A DNA stretch of 18,625 nt. Source: Promethearchaeia archaeon. GTDB taxonomy: Archaea > Asgardarchaeota > Lokiarchaeia > Sigyniarchaeales > SOKP01. The stretch is taken from the NCBI GenBank assembly GCA_046497275.1, contig JAWOFX010000059.1, positions 1 through 18,625 of the forward strand, in the 5' to 3' direction. The notes under the pieces are model-generated. The model saw only the letters and a list, made by a program, of their open reading frames with translations. It was not told the DNA's origin and did no database searches. Below, piece by piece: positions 6,847 to 18,625 of this stretch. The first letter of the stretch is position 1, and each line of letters opens with the position of its first letter. A program made the translations under genes and the position numbers.

Positions 6847-8145
6847 TTAAATTCCAGCCATTTTATATAAGGTTCTTAACGCTCTGCTCATAATATATTG
6901 CTGAATTTGACGTGATCCTCCTACAATTTCCTGAATTCGAGAGATGTTTATATAATCATGCATAAGAGTATTATCGCATAACCCTGCACCTCCCATCGAG
7001 TTCCCTGCTTCATAACATACTTCTTCCGAAAGTTTAGTTGCTTGATATTTCAACTGCGAGGCAGATGCAACCATCACTTGTTGTATATTTCCAGGAATCT
7101 TCATATCTCCCCCAAACTTTTCAACTTTTTCATCATAGGATTGGCAGAATTTAAGCATTCCAAGTGTTAAATTTGTTGTCCTCGCCCATAAATCCGTTAA
7201 TAAAAAACCTACTCCTTGAAATTTGAGGATTAACTGGTTAAATTGTTCCCTTAGGTTTGCATAAATCACTGCATGAGCAAGAGAACCCCAACATTGAGCA
7301 ATACTCATTATTGCGATGGAAATTCTTTCTGGAACTAAACCTTCAAACATATATTCACGTCCTTTTCCAACACCCCCGAGAACATACTCCTTAGGAACGT
7401 GTACATTTACTAATTCTTCTTTTCCTAAATATAGTTTTGGAACCCATGGAATATTGACGCGTTCAGCATTAAAACCATCCCATCGTGTATCTATTAAGAA
7501 TTGAGCCATTTTCCCTACATTATTGGCCTCTGTAGTCGCATAGCATACTACATAATCAGATCTGGGGGCATTAGTATTATAAATCTTAGTTCCATTTAAA
7601 ATAAAACTTCCATCTTCTTGTTCCTCACAAGTAGTAAGTTGATGAAGGGCATCAGATCCTCTCTCTGGTTCTGTAATTAAAATTGCTCCAGGAGTTTTTC
7701 CTGTTACCATAGCTTTTAATGCTTCTAGTCTTTCGGACACATTCTCATGATGCCAATAGACTGGATTTACCGCCAACACTGTAGCTCCACTGCCCATTAG
7801 GAATTGTGGTGAAAACATATCAATTGCCAAAGTTCTTAAAAATTCTGCTGTTAATCCCCAATAATCATAATTGACATCAATCATCTCAAAATTATGCGCT
7901 CTCGTTATATATCCTTCTTGTCCGAAATCCTCTACCCAATCATAAATATCCTCTTCAGGTCCATGTTTTATATTATTTTTCTTTTGATATCTTTGACAAA
8001 AACGTTGAACTCCTTTTAAAAAATTAAATTCCTCGGGTTCAAGGATCGTCATCAGATTTGTATTTAGAAAAGAATAGCGGTTTTTCAAACTTAATTTTTC
8101 AAGTATTTCGTCATTAATTGCTTGTGTTTTAAACTTTTTTGGCAT
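6847..8145 (-). CDS. Acyl-CoA dehydrogenase family protein (paralog 1 of 3)
   Basis: 432 aa; ILITEPERGSDALHQL, VPERISIAIMSIAQCWGSLAHAVIYANLREQF, EIVGGSRQIQQYIMSRALRTL. Confidence 0.92.
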   Translation of the reverse strand: MPKKFKTQAINDEILEKLSLKNRYSFLNTNLMTILEPEEFNFLKGVQRFCQRYQKKNNIKHGPEEDIYDWVEDFGQEGYITRAHNFEMIDVNYDYWGLTAEFLRTLAIDMFSPQFLMGSGATVLAVNPVYWHHENVSERLEALKAMVTGKTPGAILITEPERGSDALHQLTTCEEQEDGSFILNGTKIYNTNAPRSDYVVCYATTEANNVGKMAQFLIDTRWDGFNAERVNIPWVPKLYLGKEELVNVHVPKEYVLGGVGKGREYMFEGLVPERISIAIMSIAQCWGSLAHAVIYANLREQFNQLILKFQGVGFLLTDLWARTTNLTLGMLKFCQSYDEKVEKFGGDMKIPGNIQQVMVASASQLKYQATKLSEEVCYEAGNSMGGAGLCDNTLMHDYINISRIQEIVGGSRQIQQYIMSRALRTLYKMAGI

Positions 8146-8425
8146 TTTTCTCTCACTGAAATTTAAGATTTCAATTCAATTATAACATTATTTTTTAAAT
8201 ATTATAAATAATTACTATTTTTTCTAAAAATAGGCATTGAAAATGCAGAAAAGTTTAAGAGAGATATGAAAATATTTACATAACCTAAAAATATTCTTGA
8301 AAAATGCTTGAAAATTATAATTTTTAGTTTCTTTCTAAATTAGACTTCACTCAAAAATAAATGAATTATTATGAAAAAAAGATCAAAAAAAATAAAAAAG
8401 AAGATTAAAATTGTAATTAAATGAC

Positions 8426-9733
8426 TTATACTGACATTTTAAAGAGAGTACGTAATGCTAATGACATTATATATTGTTGAATTTGACGTGAGCCTCCTAC
8501 AATTTCTTGGATACGAGAAATCCCGATATAATCGTACATGAGAGTATTATCACATAATCCTGCACCTCCCATTAAGTTCCCAGCTTCATAACATACATCT
8601 TTACAAAGAGATGTACAATGGAACTTTAACTGACTCGCAGCAGAAACCATTGCTTGGCTAATATTTTTTGGTATTTTATCTTCTCCTCCAAATTTCTCAA
8701 CTTTTTCATCATAGGCTTCGCAAAATTTCAGTAAAGCTAATGTTAAATTGGTTGTTTTAGACCATAATTCAGATAAGAGAAAACCGACTCCTTGAAACTT
8801 GAGAATTTCTTGATCAAATTGTTTTCTCATATTAGCATATAAAGCTGCATGAGCAACAGATCCCCAACATTCGCATATTGCCATTATTGCAATTCCAATC
8901 CTTTCAGGAACTAAACCCTCGAAAAGATATTCTCTTCCCTTCCCCACTCCCCCAAGAATATACTCTTTTGGAACGCGAAGATTTTCTAGATGTTCCTTTC
9001 CTAAATAAACCTTAGGAACCCATGGAATGAAGACTCTCTCACAATTCCAACCGTCCCAATCAGTATCGATTAAAAATTGCGCCATCTTGTTGCCGTTATT
9101 GCGTTCTGCGGTCGCATAAACCACTGCCCATTTAGATCTGGGAGCGTTAGTATTGTAAATTTTATCTCCATTAATTATATAACTCCCATCGGCTTGTTCA
9201 TCACATGTGGTTAATTGATGGACTGCATCGGATCCTCTTTCAGGTTCTGTAATACATATACATCCAGGTGCATCACCGACAACTAAATCTTTCAAGGCTT
9301 CCAATCTCACTGGGACATCTTCATGATGCCAATGAAGTGGATTAATAGCTAATACAGTAGCTCCACCTGCCATGGCAAATTGTGGATCAAACATATCCAC
9401 TGCAAGATTTCTCATCATTTCAACAGTTAACCCATATTCTTCAAAACCCGTATCAATTTCCTCAAAGGGATGAGCTCTAGAAATGTATCCTTCTTTTCCG
9501 AAATCATCAATCCAATCATAAACATCCTCTTCTGGTCCATGAGTAATTTCGTTTTTCTTTTCAAATCGCATACAGAATCTTTGAACATTTCTAAGAAATC
9601 CAAATTCTTCTTGAGTTAAAATACTCATTAGATTATTATTAAGGAAATTATATCGATTTTTTAAGCTTAATGCTTCTAAAATTTCATCATTTATAGCTTG
9701 AGTCTTAAACTTTTGACCCATATTTCTTCTCAC
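8426..9733 (-). CDS. Acyl-CoA dehydrogenase family protein (paralog 2 of 3); the start may be the internal MGQKF
   Basis: 435 aa; same motifs as neighbouring ORFs (ITEPERGSDAVHQL, VPERIGIAIMAICECWGS, EIVGGSRQIQQYIMSLALRTL). Confidence 0.92.
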   Translation of the reverse strand: MRRNMGQKFKTQAINDEILEALSLKNRYNFLNNNLMSILTQEEFGFLRNVQRFCMRFEKKNEITHGPEEDVYDWIDDFGKEGYISRAHPFEEIDTGFEEYGLTVEMMRNLAVDMFDPQFAMAGGATVLAINPLHWHHEDVPVRLEALKDLVVGDAPGCICITEPERGSDAVHQLTTCDEQADGSYIINGDKIYNTNAPRSKWAVVYATAERNNGNKMAQFLIDTDWDGWNCERVFIPWVPKVYLGKEHLENLRVPKEYILGGVGKGREYLFEGLVPERIGIAIMAICECWGSVAHAALYANMRKQFDQEILKFQGVGFLLSELWSKTTNLTLALLKFCEAYDEKVEKFGGEDKIPKNISQAMVSAASQLKFHCTSLCKDVCYEAGNLMGGAGLCDNTLMYDYIGISRIQEIVGGSRQIQQYIMSLALRTLFKMSV

Positions 9734-9903
9734 ATATTTTACTAATTATTTTTATTAAAATTTAGCAGTTAAAACAGCTAAGTTTAATTATATGCTTTGT
9801 TAAAGAACTATAAAAAGTTATAAAAATATAATCATAACTTTTCTAATAATAAGAAAAATAATAATAAAAAGAAGATTTGGTATTGAATGAATTAAGTAGT
9901 TAT

Positions 9904-11199
9904 TTATACTGACATTTTGAATAGTGTTCTTAATGATAGAGACATAACGTATTGCTGTATTTCAGTACTACCGCCAATAATTTCCTGTATTCTTGAAATA
10001 TTTATGTAGTCATGCATGGGTGTGTTATCACATAATCCTGCTCCACCCATTAAATTCCCTGCCTCATAACAAACTTGCTCAGAAAGTTTGGTGGCATGAT
10101 ATTTAAGTTGACTGCCTGAAGCAACCATTGCTTGCTGAATATTTCTTGGGATATTCTGATCACCACCAAATTTTTCAACTTTCTCATCATAAGATTCGGT
10201 AAATTTAAGCATACCTAATGTTAAATTTGTAGTTTTTGCCCATAAATCAGTTAGATGAAATCCTACACCTTGAAACTTCAGTATCTCTTGATTAAATTGT
10301 TCTCTTAGATTAGCATATATAGTAGCTATAGATAATGCTCCCCAGCATTGAGAAATGGCACCCATAGCAATACCTACTCTTTCCATAACTAAACCTTCAA
10401 ATAGATGTGTTTTTCCTTTACCAATTCCTGCTAAGATATATTCTTTTGGAACTCTTACGTTATTTAATTCTTCTTTCCCTAAATAGAGCTTTGGGACCCA
10501 AGGTATTCCAACACGCTTTACATTAAAACCATCCCAATTAGTATTTATTAAGAATTGTCCCATTTTATTACTATTGTTTTTCTCTGTGGTAGCATATCCA
10601 ACCACCCATTTGGATTTTGGTGCGTTGGTATTAAAGATCTTTGTTCCGTTAAGTAGAAAGCTACCATCATCTTGTTCTTCACATTCTACTAACATATGAG
10701 TAGCATCTGAACCGCGCTCTGGTTCTGTAATAAGAATAGCCCCAGGAGTTTTTCCAGTAATCATTTCCTTCAATGCTTCTAATCTAACAGGCACATTTTC
10801 GTGATGCCAATGAATAGGATTAGTTGCTAATATCGTGGCTCCAGCACCCATAGCGAATTGAGTATCAAAATTATCTATTGCTAAATATCTAAGAAAATCA
10901 GCAACAGCACCATGAGGTTCATAATTTTGGTCAATTTCATCATATGGATACATTCTTGAGATATATCCTTTCTCTCCAAAAGTAGGAATCCAATCATAAA
11001 TGTCCTCTTCAGGGCCGTGAGTTATCTCATTCTTCTTTTCAAATCGCATGCAGAATCTTTGAACTTCTTTGAGAAAATTGAATTCATCAGGACTTAATAT
11101 CGCCATTAAATTATTATTAACGAAGTTGTAACGATTTTTTAAGCTCAATGCGTCTAAGATTTCGTCATTAATTACTTGAGTTTCAAATCTTTTTGCCAA
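9904..11199 (-). CDS. Acyl-CoA dehydrogenase family protein (paralog 3 of 3)
   Basis: 431 aa; ILITEPERGSDATHML, VMERVGIAMGAISQCWGAL, EIIGGSTEIQQYVMSLSLRTL. Confidence 0.92.
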   Translation of the reverse strand: MAKRFETQVINDEILDALSLKNRYNFVNNNLMAILSPDEFNFLKEVQRFCMRFEKKNEITHGPEEDIYDWIPTFGEKGYISRMYPYDEIDQNYEPHGAVADFLRYLAIDNFDTQFAMGAGATILATNPIHWHHENVPVRLEALKEMITGKTPGAILITEPERGSDATHMLVECEEQDDGSFLLNGTKIFNTNAPKSKWVVGYATTEKNNSNKMGQFLINTNWDGFNVKRVGIPWVPKLYLGKEELNNVRVPKEYILAGIGKGKTHLFEGLVMERVGIAMGAISQCWGALSIATIYANLREQFNQEILKFQGVGFHLTDLWAKTTNLTLGMLKFTESYDEKVEKFGGDQNIPRNIQQAMVASGSQLKYHATKLSEQVCYEAGNLMGGAGLCDNTPMHDYINISRIQEIIGGSTEIQQYVMSLSLRTLFKMSV

Positions 11200-13669: not shown

Positions 13670-14029
13670 TTAAATTTTATCATCGGGTTTATAATCTCCT
13701 TTTATAAATACCACCTTAATTGGTTCCGATGACTCGTTTCGTATATTATGCATCTCTTTTGGTTCAATCAGAAAAACACTCCCTTCAGGGGCATTATATT
13801 CATTATCATCGACCATCATTATTCCATTTCCTTCCATAAAATAGAAAGTCTCATCTATATAATTATGTCCGTGGGCTTGTTCAGCCATTTTATCACCCGG
13901 CATAATTTTAATGACCCCCCAATCAATACTGGGTCCTCGCATTAAATATTTTACGCCAGAATCACCATCGCGATATTCAAACTCATTTTCATTTACTTTT
14001 TTCATATAAATAACACTCAAACTTTCCAA
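13670..14029 (-). CDS. Cupin-domain protein
   Basis: 119 aa; IKIMPGDKMAEQAHGHNYIDETFYFMEGNGIMMVDDNEYNAPEGSVFLIEPKEMHNIRN. Confidence 0.88.
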   Translation of the reverse strand: MESLSVIYMKKVNENEFEYRDGDSGVKYLMRGPSIDWGVIKIMPGDKMAEQAHGHNYIDETFYFMEGNGIMMVDDNEYNAPEGSVFLIEPKEMHNIRNESSEPIKVVFIKGDYKPDDKI

Positions 14030-14146
14030 TAAGGTCTATAGGATATTATTTTACCTTATTAATAACATTTATCACTATATCCTAGAAATTTTAATAGCTG
14101 CTTGAAAAAGTATTAAAAAAACAGTTAGCGTTCTCAAAAGATATCA

Positions 14147-14671
14147 TTATTTTCCCAAGCTATTTAAAATATTAAGGGTCAAAAGCTCAAAAGACTTTTG
14201 AACATTTTCACCTGTTTTGCTAGAAATTTTCAAATAATCGATAAGCTCGTATTTTTCAAGATATTCCATTGCGTAATCATCACTCACAGAAATTTCACTT
14301 TTCAAATCATTCTTCGTTCCTAAAAACAAAATAGGAAGGTTAGGATTATCCGTTCTACAGATATCGATCCATTGTCCAATTCTATCCAGCGTGAGGGGTC
14401 TTGTTAAATCAAACATGAGTAATGCACCTTTTGCCCCAGAAGTATAAGATTGTAGCAAAAATCGAAAGCGTTCTTGGCCTCCAAAATCCCATAGTTGAAG
14501 CATTATATTTCTATTATGAATTCTTAACTCTTTTAGAAAAAATTCAACCCCTATCGTCATTTTAGTATTCGCTTCAAATTTACCTTCAACATAACGATGA
14601 AGAAGAGTGGTTTTTCCAACTCCACCTTCCCCTGCTGTCAATATCTTCAACACAATGGGTTTATCAGACAT
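14147..14671 (-). CDS. Ras/Rab-like small GTPase (paralog A)
   Basis: 174 aa; G1 GEGGVGKTT, switch I TKMTIGVEFF, G3 LWDFGGQERF, G4 TKND, G5 SSKTG. Confidence 0.92.
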   Translation of the reverse strand: MSDKPIVLKILTAGEGGVGKTTLLHRYVEGKFEANTKMTIGVEFFLKELRIHNRNIMLQLWDFGGQERFRFLLQSYTSGAKGALLMFDLTRPLTLDRIGQWIDICRTDNPNLPILFLGTKNDLKSEISVSDDYAMEYLEKYELIDYLKISSKTGENVQKSFELLTLNILNSLGK

Positions 14672-14839
14672 CTTACTCGCTAAACTAATTTATATGAAAT
14701 TTGTATTTAATTTGAACCGTTATTTCCTAATCCTAAAAGTAATTTTAAAAAATTGATGAACTATGTTTAAGTATATATCTTTAAACTTAGTTATAATTAA
14801 AAAATTTATTTTTCTTCTATATTAATTAAAGCATTAATC

Positions 14840-15322
14840 TTATGCCCTAGTTATAGAGATAAATTGTTTCTTCCTTAAATAAATTATAGAAATTTCGGAT
14901 TGAGTCGCTTTTTTTCTTAATTCATAATCATTGGTTGCTAAAAAAACAGAAGAGATTTCTTTTTTCAATAATTTAGCTTTTTTTAAGAGAAACTGATCTG
15001 TAGTTTCCTTTTCATTTTTTACCTCATCGATAAAGGAAATATGGAATTTATTTTTATTCATCTCCAAATAGCGTTTTCCTGCTTCTAATTGAGTATGAAA
15101 TTTGTTACTTTTTCTTTTTTTTCTAAATCTTTCTTTTTTAGCCTCTAATTCATCACATACTTGTTTGTATATTATAAATTTTGTTTTCCCTTCTAATTTA
15201 AAAACAATATCTTCCAAATAATCTAAATGAAATTGAACGGGAAGTAAAATAAAATTAGAATCCAGTATTACAGCATTGAATTTTAAGGACATTTTATTTT
15301 GATTTAACTCAATAATATCCAA
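14840..15322 (-). CDS. Fcf1/VapC9-like PIN-domain protein
   Basis: 160 aa; AVILDSNFILLPVQF...IYKQVCDELEAKK...ETTDQFLLKKA...SSVFLATNDYELRKKA...IIYLRKKQFI, acidic residues at PIN-like positions. Confidence 0.72.
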   Translation of the reverse strand: MDIIELNQNKMSLKFNAVILDSNFILLPVQFHLDYLEDIVFKLEGKTKFIIYKQVCDELEAKKERFRKKRKSNKFHTQLEAGKRYLEMNKNKFHISFIDEVKNEKETTDQFLLKKAKLLKKEISSVFLATNDYELRKKATQSEISIIYLRKKQFISITRA

Positions 15323-15381
15323 TTAATCTTATAAATAGTAAGGTAAATAACATATATTTAAGAATTGGGAATTCAAGTTTT

Positions 15382-15912
15382 TTATATCTGTTGTTTTTCA
15401 AGGATTCGAGTTGTTAATAATTCAAACGCTGCTTGAACATTTTCTCCTGTCTTGGATGAGATCTTTAAATAGTCAAAGAGGTTTAATTCCTCCATGAAGC
15501 TCTTCGCATACTCATCATCAACCATGATTTCATCTTTAAGGTCAAGCTTAGTACCAAGAAAAAGGATGGGGAGATTTGGATCACCTTTTCGGACAATATT
15601 AACCCATTGTTCTAAGTTTTCTAATGTTTGAATTCTGGTTAAATCAAACATTAATAAAGCGCCTTTTGCCCCTAATACATAACTTTCTAATAAAAATCGG
15701 AATCTCTCTTGACCACCAAAATCCCAGAGCTGAAGAGTGCAGTCTTGACTATTAATTTGAACTTCTTTTAGAAAAAACTCAACCCCGATCGTCATCTTTG
15801 TAGATTGTGAAAACTTTCCCTCTACATAGCGATGAAGGAGCGTAGTTTTTCCAACTCCTCCCTCTCCCGCTGTTAAGAGTTTCAAAATGAATTTTTTGCC
15901 CATTTTCTTCAC
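15382..15912 (-). CDS. Ras/Rab-like small GTPase (paralog B); the start may be the internal MGKKF
   Basis: 176 aa; GEGGVGKTT, TKMTIGVEFF, LWDFGGQERF, TKLD, SSKTG; highly similar to the 14147..14671 protein. Confidence 0.92.
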   Translation of the reverse strand: MKKMGKKFILKLLTAGEGGVGKTTLLHRYVEGKFSQSTKMTIGVEFFLKEVQINSQDCTLQLWDFGGQERFRFLLESYVLGAKGALLMFDLTRIQTLENLEQWVNIVRKGDPNLPILFLGTKLDLKDEIMVDDEYAKSFMEELNLFDYLKISSKTGENVQAAFELLTTRILEKQQI

Positions 15913-16405
15913 ATATTTACTAGATTTTTAGATTCAGTTATTAAGACGATATCTATTTGAATTGTGATTATATCTCAATAATTTCATTCAAGGATGTATG
16001 TTTAATTAATTAAAATTCTGTTTTATTAATTTAGTGATTTCATGATTTTCTGTTCTATAAGATAGAAGATTTAAGATTTATATCCGATTTTATGTAATAT
16101 TAGTGCTTAATTTTAAGTATTAATTTTTTAAAATTATTCTTATATGAATATAATACATTAATCATAGTACAACTAAATAAATCTTTTTAATTGTGAAGTA
16201 TTAACAATTATTCATTGTTTTATCCAATTCTAACATTTTTAAAATTCTAAATATTGAATATAAAATTCTTTAGTAATAAGACAAATTATTGATTTTTAGT
16301 TCATAAAATTTCAATTAAAACAAACTATAAAAAAATTCATTTCTTATACTTAAATGGCAGTAAATATTGATATTAATGAAAAATTATCTGAGGTATTAAT
16401 AAAAT

Positions 16406-16699
16406 ATGGGAAAAATTAAGAAGAAAAAACCTTCTGATGAATTGCTTGATAGATTAAATGTTACATCATGGGGGATTTGGGAGAAGGAGAAAAGTGAATT
16501 TCCTTGGTCTTATAGTGATACTGAAACATGCTATATTCTAGATGGGGAAGTTGAAGTCACCACTGAAGATGGAGAGAAGGTTGAATTTAAGGAAGGTGAC
16601 CTCTTACAATTTCCAGAAGGTTTGAATTGTAAATGGAATATTAAAAAACCTGTGAGAAAGTATTATAATTTTGGTCCTTTAGATATCGAGGAAGAATAA
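16406..16699 (+). CDS. Small cupin protein (DUF861/Cupin_3-like)
   Basis: 97 aa; ETCYILDGEVEVTTEDGEKVEFKEGDLLQFPEGLNCKWNI. Confidence 0.85.
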   Translation: MGKIKKKKPSDELLDRLNVTSWGIWEKEKSEFPWSYSDTETCYILDGEVEVTTEDGEKVEFKEGDLLQFPEGLNCKWNIKKPVRKYYNFGPLDIEEE

Positions 16700-17137
16700 T
16701 TTGCTTTTTTCCTTTATTTATTTTATTTTTCACTTATTTCTTTCTATAAAAATTTTTTAAACCAGGAAAGTAATGTTCTATATAGATTTATTTATCAGAT
16801 TTTTCACATACAAATATATGAAAATTCCTCTGCTCAGAAATCATTAAAAGATGGCAAAATCAATCAGCAAGAGATGGATTTTCCCTTAAAAAAATCAGCA
16901 TTTCTAGAACTATTGATGGTAAAGCTGAATTAATTGTGATTCTTGGGCTGATTTCACTAATTTTAGAAATACTAGGTATAATTTCAAACTAAATAAACTA
17001 AAAGATCAATAACTAATTATTGTAAAAATTGAGAAATTAAAAAAGAAATTATTTAGTTGTAGCTCTTTTTTAAATTTGAATACACTATTAGAGTTTTTGA
17101 ATATCCATAAAATTAAAATCCTTTTTATTTGACTTTC

Positions 17138-17614
17138 TCACAACTTTTTTTCTCTTCTTCTCTTTTTAGTCTCTTGTAATTCTATTAGAAAACCTAAAGT
17201 GTTCTCTGTATCGAAATAAGCGAAATGTTGTTTTCCAATGTTTCCAATAAATACAGGATCCATTTTATTTTTTTTAAATAATTCAATATAATCATCTAAA
17301 CCCTCTACCATACAACTTATATGCTGGAAGCCTTCATTGCCATTGTCTAAAAATTCTTTATGAATTCCTTCCCCAGAAACCCATTCAATAAGTTCAATTT
17401 GTTTACCGAAATATCTACTCATGGCAATTCTTGTCGTATAGGTTGATTTTTCACCACGGTATATAATTTCATTAGTATTCGGCCCAAGTTTTGCAAATTT
17501 TGGCATACCCCATACTTCTTCCATTATTTTAGCCTGTTTATCAATATCTCTATATACATAACCTAATTGGAATATTTTCAAATCTTTTAAATTTAATATT
17601 TCTTGATCTGACAT
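17138..17614 (-). CDS. VOC/glyoxalase-superfamily protein, methylmalonyl-CoA epimerase-like fold
   Basis: 158 aa; FQLGYVYRDIDKQAKIMEEVWGM...QIELIEWV...GFQHISCMVEGLDDYIELFKK...HFAYFDTENTLGFLIELQE. Confidence 0.85.
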   Translation of the reverse strand: MSDQEILNLKDLKIFQLGYVYRDIDKQAKIMEEVWGMPKFAKLGPNTNEIIYRGEKSTYTTRIAMSRYFGKQIELIEWVSGEGIHKEFLDNGNEGFQHISCMVEGLDDYIELFKKNKMDPVFIGNIGKQHFAYFDTENTLGFLIELQETKKRRREKKL

Positions 17615-17660
17615 TTTTTTTCATTTTTAAATTAATTTTTAATTTATAGAAAAAACAAAT

Positions 17661-18185
17661 TTATTCTATATTTTGAGAATTTTGATTTTTTTGATTAATC
17701 CTATTGTGTCTTTTTAAAGTCTCTTCAATAGTTCGTATTTCTGCTCGTGTATTAATATCAACTTTTTTAAATGTCTCAAATAATTCCTTTTCTCCATAAC
17801 CTTTCGTCTGGAGTTCTATAAATTTTTCTATCAAATCACTATGATAGAAAATATATTTATTATTTAAGAGAATTATTAACCAATCTCTTTTTTCTTGATT
17901 TTGAGAGAGATTGAAAAGATTTTTTCTTATTTTGCCCTTTTCTTTTCCAAAGCCTTTTACTATATCACTCTCTTCTATTCGATAATATTTTTTTAAAAAT
18001 CTAAGAAGACGATTTTTGAAAAAAAAGGATGGTATATACGAAGCAATAAATAAAGCGATGGTGATAATACTAAGTATTATTGCTGCGAGAGGATTATAAA
18101 TTGCTAAAATGATAATAATTATAACGAGAATTATGAACCAGCTTCTCCAAATGGTTTTTAAAAAGACAACGTATTTTTTTGGCAT
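17661..18185 (-). CDS. Hypothetical protein with two N-terminal TM helices
   Basis: 174 aa; SWFIILVIIIIILAIYNPLAAIILSIITIALFIASYIPSFFF followed by a charged cytosolic-like region. Confidence 0.7.
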   Translation of the reverse strand: MPKKYVVFLKTIWRSWFIILVIIIIILAIYNPLAAIILSIITIALFIASYIPSFFFKNRLLRFLKKYYRIEESDIVKGFGKEKGKIRKNLFNLSQNQEKRDWLIILLNNKYIFYHSDLIEKFIELQTKGYGEKELFETFKKVDINTRAEIRTIEETLKRHNRINQKNQNSQNIE

Positions 18186-18283
18186 AATTTATTTCGTTTC
18201 TAAATTCATTTAGTATAATTTATGGTATATAAGATGATTTAAAAATTATTTCACAGCAATAATTATGATTTTTTTAAAAGAAA

Positions 18284-18481
18284 GGTGTTCAGCCACATAG
18301 AATAAGCGTTTCTGGGTTCGGAATGGGACCAGGTACTATCCGATGTTGCTATGACCGTGAGCGAACTCACAGCTTAGTATTTCCCACTGATTTCAACAGA
18401 AGTACTATTACTAACGCAACAAAGTTTAACTTCCAGCGCTTTAGCGTGTAGCTACATCTTATGTGGCTACGAACATACACC
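18284..18481 (-). ncRNA. Predicted precursor of the permuted 5S rRNA with paired 5' leader and 3' trailer
   Basis: Leader GGUGU(18481-18477), UC(18472-18471), AGCCACAUA(18468-18460), AAGCG(18441-18437) pair with trailer ACACC(18288-18284), GA(18290-18289), UAUGUGGCU(18299-18291), CGCUU(18308-18304). Confidence 0.75.
18310..18430 (-). rRNA. 5S rRNA, circularly permuted: 3' segment 18430->18366, UUCG linker 18365->18362, 5' segment 18361->18310
   Basis: Minus strand contains the loop C signature CCUGGUCCCAUUCCGAACCCAG, CACGGUCAUAGC (start of the 5' domain) and, upstream of these, GGAAGUUAAAC...GUUAGUA...AGUACUU...CAGUGGGAAAUAC...GCUGUGAG (the 3' domain). Helix I CUGUGAG/CUCACGG is capped by UUCG; helix II GCAACA/UGUUGC; UUAGUA/UACUAA closes the third arm. 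Reassembled length is 117 nt plus the 4-nt cap. Confidence 0.88.
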
Positions 18482-18501
18482 ATATTCATTTTTTAAGTCT
18501 C

Positions 18502-18520
18502 TCAATTTCTTGGAAATTGA
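18502..18520. repeat. Perfect inverted repeat TCAATTTC-TTG-GAAATTGA
   Basis: 8-bp arms around a 3-nt spacer, about 20 nt upstream (minus sense) of the predicted 5S leader stem. Confidence 0.8.
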
Positions 18521-18625
18521 TAACTTAAAACATTATGGTTTTTTAGGTAAATAATTGTAATAATGTCTAATAATTAAAGTTTACTATGGAAAACCATTAA
18601 ATTTAAAAGGGATAAGTGTTCGGAT

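Follow-up and report, generated by a model that had tools for sequence, protein, structure and literature searches.

How a cell could obtain a working 5S rRNA from a gene that encodes the two halves of the molecule in swapped order is the question raised by a locus on the minus strand of an 18,625-nucleotide contig (JAWOFX010000059.1) from a Promethearchaeia archaeon; we call this whole stretch of DNA the window. Finding the 5S gene is said to be straightforward in archaeal, bacterial and nuclear genomes (PMC4267664). An initial annotation, made from the letters alone, had read the locus as a circularly permuted 5S rRNA gene in an apparent Asgard archaeon. The window has a GC content of ~30%, its genes include two Ras-family GTPases, eIF-1A and an Spt5-NGN protein, and all named homologues of a neighbouring gene (90/90) come from Asgard-labelled MAGs, mostly of Loki- or Promethearchaeota. 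We conclude that the locus is a circularly permuted, apparently functional 5S rRNA gene of an Asgard archaeon (Lokiarchaeota/Promethearchaeota).

Gene order and 5S identity

Read on the minus strand, positions 18430..18366 form the 3' half of a 5S rRNA (GUUAAAC...GCUGUGAG), followed by UUCG (18365..18362) and then by the 5' half (18361..18310, reading CUCACGG...CCCAGAA). The 3' part thus lies upstream of the 5' part, with the natural ends joined by a short linker and the whole served by one promoter-like box and one T-run. The parts of the unit are listed from upstream to downstream, using BHB for bulge-helix-bulge.

18594..18611 (-): conserved AT-rich box 1, CCCTTTTAAATTTAATGG, from an alignment of 32 upstream regions; possibly a promoter element
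18567..18582 (-): conserved box 2, AAACTTTAATTATTAG, the likely TATA box of the 5S unit
18477..18540 (-): hairpin in the leader, AACCAUAAUG...AUAUGGUGU, downstream of the putative TATA box and upstream of the processing stem
18460..18468 (-): outer processing stem, 5' strand, AGCCACAUA; 9 bp with 18291..18299
18446..18457 (-): small leader segment, AUGUAGCUACAC, from the outer stem to the BHB, with a helix around it in the constrained fold
18437..18441 (-): BHB outer helix H1, 5' strand, AAGCG; pairs with CGCUU at 18304..18308
18433..18436 (-): BHB central 4-bp helix, leader strand, CUGG; pairs with CCAG at 18312..18315
18430..18432 (-): BHB bulge 1, AAG, 3 nt, directly 3' of the central-helix strand; predicted cut between 18431 and 18430
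18366..18430 (-): 5S 3' half, comprising the outer two helix III pairs, helix II 3' strand, helices V and IV, loops E and D and helix I 3' strand (from RF00001, model R1 and covariation)
18362..18365 (-): UUCG tetraloop on helix I, at the site of the free 5' and 3' ends of a normal 5S
18310..18361 (-): 5S 5' half, comprising helix I 5' strand, loop A, helix II 5' strand, loop B, inner helix III and loop C (RF00001 positions 1-51 at high posterior probability; R1)
18312..18315 (-): BHB central helix, 5S strand, CCAG; doubles as the helix III 3' strand
18309..18311 (-): BHB bulge 2, AAA; predicted cut between 18310 and 18309
18304..18308 (-): BHB outer helix H1, 3' strand, CGCUU; pairs with AAGCG at 18437..18441
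18291..18299 (-): outer processing stem, 3' strand, UAUGUGGCU; pairs with 18460..18468
18276..18285 (-): T-rich run, CCTTTCTTTT, read from the sequence; likely an archaeal terminator
17661..18185 (-): syntenic downstream gene for a 174-aa small membrane protein with no Pfam match

An Rfam search of the window gave no match at the gathering threshold, which for RF00001 is 38 bits. In E-value mode RF00001 gave two sub-threshold matches on the minus strand in swapped order, the reversed partial matches that the initial annotation had anticipated. The match at 18362..18248 (28.4 bits) is convincing in the 5' half only; the sequence that follows this half is not a 5S 3' domain and is aligned as filler, in keeping with the earlier statement that no canonical 3' domain is found there. 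The match at 18474..18364 (18.4 bits) is convincing from the GAAGUUAAAC stretch onward, which corresponds to the 3' portion of the model. The 5S loop motifs are present in the RF00001 alignment (loop A, CAUA/G; loop C, CCCAUnCCGAAC; loop E, AGUAC...GGGAA), and their columns are invariant or nearly so across the relatives described below. The break follows the AA bulge, between Rfam positions 51 and 52, which places the new ends in helix III as first proposed.

Two covariance models were derived from L084, an independent canonical 5S of a Thermoproteota MAG that RF00001 scores at 88.4 bits and that serves as our positive control. R2 keeps the order of L084, and R1 was rotated in silico at the window's breakpoint and given a UUCG cap. 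R1 matches exactly 18310..18430 (-) over its full length (model 1-125 of 125, 43.2 bits, E 8.8e-10), far above chance level; R2 finds only the helix III/loop C hairpin (model 25-53, 21.2 bits, E 0.15). The full-length match predicted for the rotated arrangement was thus obtained, with the model rather than the sequence rotated. Sub-gathering scores for RF00001 in native order are what a permuted gene should give, and so they speak of gene order and not of the RNA; none of the 17 relatives' loci tested (0/17) reaches gathering in native order, against 88.4 bits for the L084 control.

The relatives came from a genome scan with a lineage-specific pattern that lies wholly within the 5' half and would match canonical and permuted genes alike. 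It matched 73 other genomes, all Asgard, once each, and every match is permuted; two of these genomes are closed chromosomes (CP070831.1 and CP070805.1), and a 587-kb contig also carries the arrangement. The scan found no canonical-order version of this lineage's 5S in the genome collection, and a scan of JGI metagenomes with a ligated-junction pattern spanning both breakpoints returned only an unrelated canonical 5S gene of Thermoproteota. In every relative fetched, the 5S lies upstream of a homologue of the gene for the 174-aa protein (on the opposite strand in L007 and L008). Prometheoarchaeum and Lokiarchaeum ossiferum are among neither the matches to the lineage-specific pattern nor the neighbour-gene homologues, and the papers on cultured Lokiarchaea make no mention of their 5S.

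The bulge-helix-bulge motif and the predicted circle

Leader and trailer form a BHB (AAGCG-CUGG-AAG / CCAG-AAA-CGCUU), in which two 3-nt bulges on opposite strands are separated by a 4-bp helix. Introns of archaeal tRNAs are cut after the second base of each bulge. When this rule is applied in silico and 18310 is joined to 18430, the result is CCCAGAA-GUUAAAC, the canonical 5S junction (RF00001 consensus CggAAguUAAG). The flanking BHB has an outer helix of 3-8 bp that covaries and no contiguous inner helix beside its bulges, which makes it a relaxed form rather than a strict hBHBh'. For the window precursor, the fold containing the BHB has an energy of -52.6 kcal/mol against -53.4 for the minimum free energy structure, a cost of 0.8 kcal/mol.

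An unrestricted BHB scan of the precursors was dropped, as it yielded dozens of chance candidates per locus in sequence of ~30% GC. The test used instead considers the restoring register only, with register and shuffle controls. A BHB in the exact register that restores 5S occurs in 65 of the 68 unique precursors; among other registers up to 15 nt away on either side the share is 0.10%, and among shuffled leaders 0.40%. Pairing of the central helix holds in 54-57 of 57 contexts, and the first three pairs of H1 form in all 57 distinct contexts, with compensatory changes in H1 such as GCG/CGC, AACG/CGUU, CUGC/GCAG, AAUG/CAUU and CCAU/GUGG. The central helix also covaries with helix III: CUGG/CCAG, CCGG/CCGG and CUGG/CCGG are seen, CCGG/CCAG never. 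Outside the BHB, the longest leader-trailer helix, which covaries, averages 12.9 bp over the 68 precursors and 8.0 bp once the leader is shuffled.

Further upstream, the TTTAATTA core of box 2 is almost invariant across loci (alignment of 32 upstream regions). The leader hairpin is present in most relatives and missing in L067 and L070, where ~25-30 nt separate the TTTAATTA box from the processing stem downstream. The hairpin has a stem similar to the outer processing stem and is possibly a relic; RNAalifold on the poor upstream-region alignment gave no consensus structure for it. At the position of the small leader segment, relatives carry a GUAGC-loop-GCUAC hairpin.

The relatives fall into two breakpoint classes, each restored exactly by its own BHB. 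The second class is broken in loop C (GGUC, then CCAUCCGAAC), and the same cut rule again gives the canonical sequence; the predicted ligated junction is ACCCGGUC^CCAUCCGAAC in class 2 and CCCAGAA^GUUAAAC in class 1. A model rotated at the second breakpoint (R3) scores 38-44.5 bits on second-class loci and 18.3 bits on the window. The classes differ even between near-identical 5S at the same locus (L057 and L073, differing in 1.6% of columns).

Permuted halves flanked by the splice signal of archaeal tRNA introns lead us to predict that the finished 5S is a closed circle. In the reading we consider likely, the locus is the working 5S gene of this Lokiarchaeon, permuted, and its transcript is spliced by EndA and RtcB into a closed circular 5S. 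A single transcript, probably running from the TTTAATTA box to the T-run, would contain leader, 3' half, UUCG cap, 5' half and trailer. Pairing of leader and trailer would form the processing stem, with the BHB at its inner end and a central BHB helix made of the leader's CUGG and the 5S's own CCAG. The tRNA-splicing endonuclease (EndA) would cut between 18431 and 18430 and between 18310 and 18309, after the second base of each bulge, releasing a 121-nt RNA whose two ends RtcB ligase would join. The new phosphodiester bond would remake the CCCAGAA-GUUAAAC continuity at the base of helix III while the tetraloop keeps the site of the normal 5S ends closed; with the junction ligated and the cap closed, the product would be covalently closed. 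This circle, with the standard three-arm fold, is the form we expect to be incorporated into the ribosome.

The precursor might instead be trimmed or cut at the BHB and left unligated, giving a linear permuted 5S with ends at helix III (loop C in class 2) like that of brown-algal mitochondria. Stramenopile mitochondria do include cases of 5S rRNAs that remain permuted (PMC4267664), and all helices can form without ligation since the cap holds both halves in one chain. Such an RNA leaves unexplained, however, why a BHB stands in the sole restoring register in 65/68 precursors and at two different breakpoints, and in class 2 it would carry a nick within the near-invariant loop C. Known archaeal products of BHB excision, namely pre-rRNAs, permuted SRP RNA and permuted tRNAs, are moreover ligated (PMC3978253; PMC4731332). 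We regard the linear form as unlikely.

We give an equally low probability to the proposal that the circle is an intermediate, reopened at the helix I cap to yield a conventional linear 5S, as for the permuted tRNAs of Cyanidioschyzon. Maturation of permuted tRNAs does involve a circle that is later opened (PMC3978253; PMC4267664), and circular pre-16S and pre-23S are classically re-linearised (PMC12918454). The cap itself speaks against reopening. That helix I is a hairpin capped by UUCG had been proposed from the window, and its top pairs covary among relatives (CUC/GAG, CUU/AAG, UUU/AAA, GCU/AGC, UCU/AGA, CCU/AGG). The caps are UUCG in 34 copies, UUAG in 18, UUUG in nine and UACG in five, with others besides, so that about 95% of copies have a 4-nt U..G tetraloop; with closing pairs that strongly covary, a cap so conserved looks like a structural loop under selection rather than a spacer. 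A processing signal is not apparent at this site, and by precedent the permuted SRP RNA remains circular (PMC4731332), as does 23S rRNA in the ribosomes of many archaea (PMC12918454). In four copies (L010, L023, L037, L040) a ~31-nt insert is kept in the cap, where it folds as an extra hairpin, and in these genomes the larger cap leaves room for some processing at the helix I end. We tried several registers for this insert as a BHB intron, and none fits.

Conservation and mini-introns among relatives

When 61 distinct matured sequences are threaded on the canonical three-arm 5S (helices I-V around loop A), 95.3% of cells are paired, compared with 21-46% in slid-register controls. Among the 35 pairs, 22 change on both sides, a value reached by none of 500 shuffles, and the covarying or paired set includes helix II and III pairs across the predicted ligation site. 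The initial annotation had named two outcomes that would speak against it: a better-conserved conventional copy elsewhere with this locus unexpressed and not conserved in relatives, or a rotated sequence that failed to match. What we find is a conserved locus, a rotated model that matches and, in the genomes and metagenomes scanned, no canonical copy of the lineage's 5S.

This bears on the notion of a non-functional relic, a decaying rearranged copy with the real canonical 5S elsewhere in the genome. Rfam makes no call at gathering, and a pattern specific to the lineage could pass over a divergent canonical copy. Against this, the locus occurs once per genome and is conserved across 73 species-level genomes with its 22 compensatory pairs, loops A, C and E are near-invariant, the promoter-like box and the processing stem are conserved, and no canonical-order 5S of the lineage turned up in the genome collection (5'-half pattern) or the JGI metagenomes; a relic is very improbable. 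An assembly artefact such as a mis-joined tandem 5S array is scarcely credible: collapsed tandem repeats can look permuted, but the same arrangement recurs with unique flanks and conserved synteny in 73 independent assemblies, including the two closed chromosomes and the 587-kb contig, and its leader and trailer are specific and structured.

In 27 genomes the 5S gene also contains BHB mini-introns of ~30 nt, at four sites. With the cut rule applied to these ~30-nt inserts, 72 of 76 processed copies come to 120-123 nt, the remaining four being those with the cap insert. One cut rule restores canonical 5S at six different sites. In the loop D mini-intron, helix IV serves as outer helix and a 4-9-bp hairpin as inner helix, a canonical hBHBh' geometry; both flanking helices are present at the two helix IV/loop D sites, and loop C mini-introns have the inner helix and no contiguous outer one. 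The intron of L062 was assigned by comparison with its relative L020, and L001, L002 and L078, in which one helix has a mismatch and falls below the strict thresholds, were resolved by eye. The inserts at the helix IV/loop D sites share the hBHBh' geometry of archaeal BHB introns in tRNA and rRNA genes, and the mini-introns as a group differ from those introns in host gene and in their unusually uniform size of ~30 nt. Our literature search, in papers outside subscription-only access, turned up no 5S rRNA gene reported to contain an intron. The reading of the locus as a permuted gene has stood, while the flanking BHB, the second breakpoint class and the mini-introns of the relatives had escaped the initial annotation.

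Known permuted and circular RNAs and the meaning of the locus

In Thermoproteus the splicing endonuclease cuts the permuted SRP RNA, which is then closed into a circle (PMC4731332). In T. tenax (Plagens et al. 2015, eLife; PMC4731332) a universal structured ncRNA is thus likewise made from a permuted gene, by the mechanism proposed here for 5S. The SRP RNA case belongs to the Thermoproteales, where it occurs in some Thermoproteus species, and has been demonstrated experimentally; the 5S case, by comparison, occurs in Lokiarchaeia, in 73/73 genomes, with two breakpoints and added mini-introns, and its circle is predicted. Permuted tRNA genes (Cyanidioschyzon merolae and some archaea; PMC3978253) also place the 3' half first in one transcript, with a junction BHB and a circular RNA. 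Their circle is transient, being opened at the acceptor stem, whereas the equivalent site in 5S is the tetraloop, which bears no sign of processing.

Archaeal 16S and 23S rRNAs (PMC12918454; PMC7758197) likewise have a long leader-trailer helix with a BHB and are circularised by EndA and a ligase. Circular 16S and 23S transcripts have been observed in Asgard archaea, circular 23S is kept in the ribosomes of many archaea, and 5S has been explicitly placed outside the archaeal rRNA circularisation pathway (PMC12918454). The 16S and 23S genes are collinear, so circularisation joins natural ends; the 5S gene is permuted, so circularisation is needed to make an internal bond.

The brown-algal mitochondrial 5S (mtPerm-5S; Valach et al. 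2014, PMC4267664) is comparable in that its helix I is closed into a hairpin, with the ends at another site. A 5' hairpin stands there in place of helix I, the ends fall at the alpha/gamma junction, the beta and gamma domains otherwise keep their collinear order, and the RNA is organellar and stays permuted with no BHB or ligation. In the Lokiarchaeal gene, by contrast, entire halves have changed places: the beta domain (helices II/III) either is interrupted or follows the gamma domain, the ends fall in helix III or loop C, and the BHB predicts religation. The locus thus departs from what defines mtPerm-5S; Rfam also reported RF00001 only, which says little since overlapping matches of the same clan are collapsed. 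An engineered circularly permuted 5S sustains viable E. coli (Huang et al. 2020, PMC7283268), so a rearranged connectivity can work in ribosomes; that construct, unlike the Lokiarchaeal gene, is artificial, bacterial and fused into 23S, with no free circle. We found no circular, permuted or intron-containing archaeal 5S in the literature searched, which left aside subscription-only papers.

These observations have practical as well as biological consequences. Since Rfam at gathering misses the window's gene and those of all 17 relatives tested (17/17), annotation and MAG-quality criteria based on RF00001 would score the 5S as absent, and a permuted covariance model would repair 5S annotation in Lokiarchaeal genomes. 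With two breakpoints and several mini-intron sites, the locus is a natural experiment on the interconversion of BHB introns and gene permutation. We lean, by a modest degree, towards a wider view in which Lokiarchaeia ribosomes contain circular 5S and the locus is a hotspot of BHB turnover. The two breakpoints and the mini-introns at four or more sites would then point to repeated rearrangement of a universal rRNA gene, at the level of cassettes or mediated by RNA, which is tolerated only thanks to repair of the transcript by the tRNA-splicing machinery. The 5S rRNA is a universal component of the ribosome, and a closed-circle 5S was previously undescribed in the literature searched; if true, our reading would extend the finding of circular 23S to an rRNA explicitly thought exempt (PMC12918454).

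Identity and setting of the permuted 5S locus

On the minus strand of the window the two halves of a 5S rRNA stand in swapped order around a tetraloop, and the sequence quoted by the initial annotation, which had proposed a circularly permuted gene here, agrees exactly with the minus-strand reading:

18430..18366, minus strand: 5S 3' half, reading GUUAAACUUUGUUGCGUUAGUAAUAGUACUUCUGUUGAAAUCAGUGGGAAAUACUAAGCUGUGAG
18365..18362, minus strand: UUCG cap between the two 5S halves
18361..18310, minus strand: 5S 5' half, reading CUCACGGUCAUAGCAACAUCGGAUAGUACCUGGUCCCAUUCCGAACCCAGAA

Rfam at its gathering threshold returns no match anywhere in the 18.6-kb window, and in E-value mode the native sequence gives two sub-threshold partial matches to the 5S rRNA family (RF00001), both on the minus strand and in the swapped order that had been anticipated. 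The match at 18362..18248 (28.4 bits) aligns convincingly only over model positions 1-51, i.e., from the helix I 5' strand through the AA bulge of helix III, and that at 18474..18364 (18.4 bits) is convincing only for the 3' part of the model, beginning with the GAAGUUAAAC stretch. The permutation was tested by rotating the model and leaving the sequence as is. A metagenome scan provided the canonical 5S source, a contig (L084/L085) whose conventional gene scores 88.4 bits against RF00001; it comes from a Thermoproteota MAG and is therefore a control independent of the lineage studied. From this 5S, with its Rfam-derived structure, we built three covariance models: R1, rotated at the window breakpoint and given a UUCG cap over the natural ends; R2, unrotated; and R3, rotated at a second (class 2) breakpoint found in relatives. 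R1 aligns exactly to 18310..18430 (minus strand) over model positions 1-125 of 125 (43.2 bits, E 8.8e-10), whereas R2 recovers just the helix III/loop C hairpin (model 25-53, 21.2 bits, E 0.15) and R3 reaches 18.3 bits. Only after the rotation first proposed does the window sequence read as a complete 5S; its RNA belongs to the 5S family, and the gene falls below the family's detection threshold because of gene order alone. Beside the canonical 5S of the control contig lies a tRNA match (L084 22-116, minus strand) that spans 95 nt for a 71-position model, so that a tRNA intron is probable.

The window is about 30% GC, contains no tRNA genes and encodes two Ras-family GTPases, a PIN protein, eIF-1A, an Spt5-NGN protein, cupins, a DEAD/MZB helicase and three acyl-CoA dehydrogenase paralogues, the last in tandem (432, 435 and 431 aa; 6847-11199, minus strand). 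Just downstream of the 5S, 17661..18185 encodes a small membrane protein with 90 homologues, of which all that are named come from Asgard-labelled MAGs, mostly Lokiarchaeota/Promethearchaeota (Promethearchaeota being the NCBI phylum of the former Lokiarchaeota). Distant Lokiarchaeal genomes share one order of genes around the 5S (window 13670-18185; relatives' loci L004, L005 and L007): Peptidase_C25, 5S, small membrane protein, Glyoxalase_4, Cupin_3, Ras-family GTPase, PIN-domain protein, Ras-family GTPase.

A bulge-helix-bulge motif at the gene ends

The flanks of the window gene show the geometry of the archaeal bulge-helix-bulge (BHB) splicing motif, with an additional stem pairing further out:

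18441..18430, minus strand: BHB leader strand AAGCG-CUGG-AAG, upstream of the 5S body
18315..18304, minus strand: BHB opposite strand CCAG-AAA-CGCUU, at the other end of the 5S body
18468..18460 (AGCCACAUA) with 18299..18291 (UAUGUGGCU), minus strand: outer processing stem

AAGCG pairs with CGCUU and the leader CUGG with CCAG, a stretch belonging to the 5S itself (helix III, 3' strand); AAG and AAA form 3-nt bulges, each 3' of its own central-helix strand. Archaeal tRNA introns are cut after the second bulge base, a rule derived from the canonical 37/38 intron. Applied in silico, this rule excises a 121-nt RNA (18430..18310) whose joined ends read CCCAGAA-GUUAAAC, matching the RF00001 consensus CggAAguUAAG (positions 46-57). 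Enforcing the BHB and outer stem on the 187-nt window precursor costs 0.8 kcal/mol (-52.6 versus a minimum of -53.4) and keeps helices I, II, IV and V.

Across relatives, 65 of 68 unique precursors have a BHB (central helix 4/4, outer helix of at least 3 bp) in the register that restores the canonical sequence; the corresponding figures are 0.10% for all remaining registers up to 15 nt away on either side and 0.40% after shuffling of the nine leader bases. Among 57 distinct contexts the four central pairs form in 57, 57, 57 and 54; the variable second pair is C-G, U-G or U-A and follows the C-G/U-A covariation of helix III, such that CUGG/CCAG, CCGG/CCGG and CUGG/CCGG occur and CCGG/CCAG is absent. 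The three innermost outer-helix pairs are formed in all 57 contexts, with several compensatory types, and the outer processing stem, which also covaries, averages 12.9 contiguous bp (minimum 8) versus 8.0 with shuffled leaders.

The unit is preceded by two conserved AT-rich boxes (18567-18582 and 18594-18611, minus strand; AAACTTTAATTATTAG and CCCTTTTAAATTTAATGG), and the TTTAATTA core, nearly invariant in about 30 genomes, is probably a TATA box. A leader hairpin of about 64 nt (18477-18540, minus strand) separates the TATA-like box from the processing stem; it is missing in two relatives (L067 and L070), and its stem AACCAUA.../...UAUGGU resembles an (empty) outer processing stem.

Two breakpoint classes, introns and the search for a conventional 5S

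Contigs from JGI and NCBI that were found by synteny with the downstream gene show the same arrangement, and CP070831.1 and CP070805.1, both closed chromosomes, are among them; there is next to no chance that the permutation is an assembly artefact. GTDB representatives (one genome per species) were scanned with the pattern GGTCAYRGN{6,8}GGANARTACCYGGTC, which lies entirely within the 5' half and is hence blind to gene order. It matched 75 stretches, two of them chance bacterial hits and 73 in MAGs labelled Asgard or uncultured archaeon, one per genome; all 73 are permuted and none is canonical. GenBank titles naming Hod-, Hermod-, Thor- and Odinarchaeota (L013, L018, L019, L022, L024, L050, L051, L053 and other JBHL... 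records) belong to genomes sharing the 5S locus architecture and neighbours; either these labels are unreliable or the permutation extends past Lokiarchaeia.

The genes fall into two classes. Class 1 (43 genomes, two truncated copies and the window) breaks after ...CCCRGAA, and class 2 (27 genomes and one truncated copy; e.g., L004 2766-2887, plus strand) breaks inside loop C after ...ACCCGGUC, the gene starting with CCAUCCGAACCCGGAAGUUAAAC. The BHB of class 2 is a different one, formed by leader CYGG and CCGG, the 5' strand of helix III (bulges AAC and UCA); cutting by the same rule yields ...ACCCGGUC-CCAUCCGAAC..., once more the canonical sequence. R3 matches class 2 loci at full length (38-44.5 bits), R1 matches most class 1 loci (21-54 bits), and each scores lower on the opposite class.

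Predicted circles measure 120-123, about 150 or about 180 nt, the extra 30 nt or so being BHB-bounded inserts, all 29-31 nt, at four sites:

Site 1: loop C, UCCG|AAa...CGGG|AAc
Site 2: alternative loop C site, in L049
Site 3: loop D, UUGC|GAu...GCAG|AAu; helix IV serves here as the outer helix of a strict hBHBh' whose inner hairpin is 4-9 bp
Site 4: helix IV 5' strand, CUGC|AAa...GCAG|AAu

At least one mini-intron occurs in 27 of 73 genomes, two genomes carrying two (examples: L011 2132-2311, minus; L005 2738-2887, L006 2731-2881 and L049 2332-2482, plus); the window's own copy has none. Cutting the inserts out in the same way brings 72 of 76 processed copies back to 120-123 nt and renders L012 identical in that region to its intron-less relative L013. 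Canonical 5S is thus recovered at six separate sites with a single cut rule, which provides an internal check of it. Separately, four of 73 genomes (L010 4414-4564, plus; L023 7541-7721, minus; L037 4114-4264, minus; L040 1938-2088, plus) carry an insert of about 31 nt in the helix I cap, just 5' of the tetraloop, that folds as an extra hairpin; no BHB was found there in any register, and it may be an expansion segment or be processed some other way.

In a neighbour-joining tree of matured sequences, with very little sequence behind it (about 117 nt), class 2 appears nested within class 1 diversity, which would require at least five class switches. The closest cross-class pairs differ in 1.6-2.4% of columns, and in each of them the class 1 partner has the loop C intron. 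Upstream leaders are nearly identical between L057/L030 (class 2) and L073/L080 (class 1), placing them at the same locus, and in L073 the gene's own stem is closely preceded by UUUUAACCACAAAA, apparently a retained outer-stem strand of class 2. Near-identical 5S of differing class at one locus, together with this relic, tentatively suggests replacement of entire 'processing stem plus gene' cassettes. The window's leader hairpin (18477..18540) may likewise have been left behind by an earlier cassette, or may be a small RNA in its own right.

A conventional gene was also sought. The order-blind scan found only permuted copies, one per genome; a pattern spanning both breakpoints, which only a canonical gene or ligated product could match, hit only the Thermoproteota gene in the JGI metagenome collection, which does contain Lokiarchaeal contigs with permuted 5S; and RF00001 has no gathering match in the 8-kb loci of 17 relatives. 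MAG descriptions for other Asgard lineages (Borr-, Jord- and Kariarchaeum) list a 5S gene, so standard tools detect 5S in those lineages. A divergent second copy in Lokiarchaeal genomes is formally possible; that the locus is a relic beside a canonical gene is very improbable.

Fold and proposed maturation of the RNA

We counted pairs of the standard five-helix structure in an alignment of 61 distinct sequences, processed in silico and opened at the cap. Standard pairs fill 95.3% of cells (21-46% when partners are slid by 1-3 columns), and 22 of 35 pairs show both-sided changes. The covariation score of 0.366 (0.150 shuffled) is attained by 0 of 500 shuffles, a control that overstates significance because the sequences are mutually related; the slid register and the number of compensatory pair types are more reliable measures. 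Helices II and III, which pair across the predicted ligation site, also have support, and the capped helix I described by the initial annotation has double changes in five of eight pairs, beneath UUCG (34), UUAG (18), UUUG (9), UACG (5) or a few other caps.

Permuted order, 5S identity, conservation, an exact-register BHB, and covariation of the 5S helices, BHB and outer stem were all established in silico. By analogy with established archaeal RNA processing, the tRNA-splicing endonuclease EndA would cut the BHB of the precursor and the ligase RtcB would join the excised piece into a circle. The same mechanism is proposed as for permuted SRP RNA and tRNA genes: the permuted SRP RNA of Thermoproteus is processed by splicing endonuclease and works as a circle (PMC4731332), and permuted tRNA genes are a further precedent (PMC3978253). 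BHB-dependent circular pre-rRNAs, circular mature 23S and, in Asgard archaea, circular 16S/23S transcripts are also described (PMC12918454). A linear permuted product is unlikely; it recalls mitochondrial mtPerm-5S, which stays permuted, but there a 5' hairpin replaces helix I only, and the Lokiarchaeal 5S is of a different type. With lesser confidence, the circle itself is probably the mature form, given the tetraloop cap with covarying closing pairs, no evident processing signal at it, and the SRP RNA and 23S precedents; re-opening at the helix I cap is about as doubtful as the linear product. An engineered circularly permuted 5S functions in E. coli ribosomes (PMC7283268), so changed connectivity is tolerable in principle.

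Full-text searches, which covered few subscription journals, returned no report of introns in 5S genes or of a permuted, circular or intron-containing archaeal 5S, and according to a 2026 paper circularisation affects 16S and 23S 'but not 5S rRNAs' (PMC12918454). What would be new here is a known repair-by-splicing mechanism acting on a further, universal RNA, with the arrangement present in all genomes of the clade found by the scan and accompanied by introns in 5S genes.
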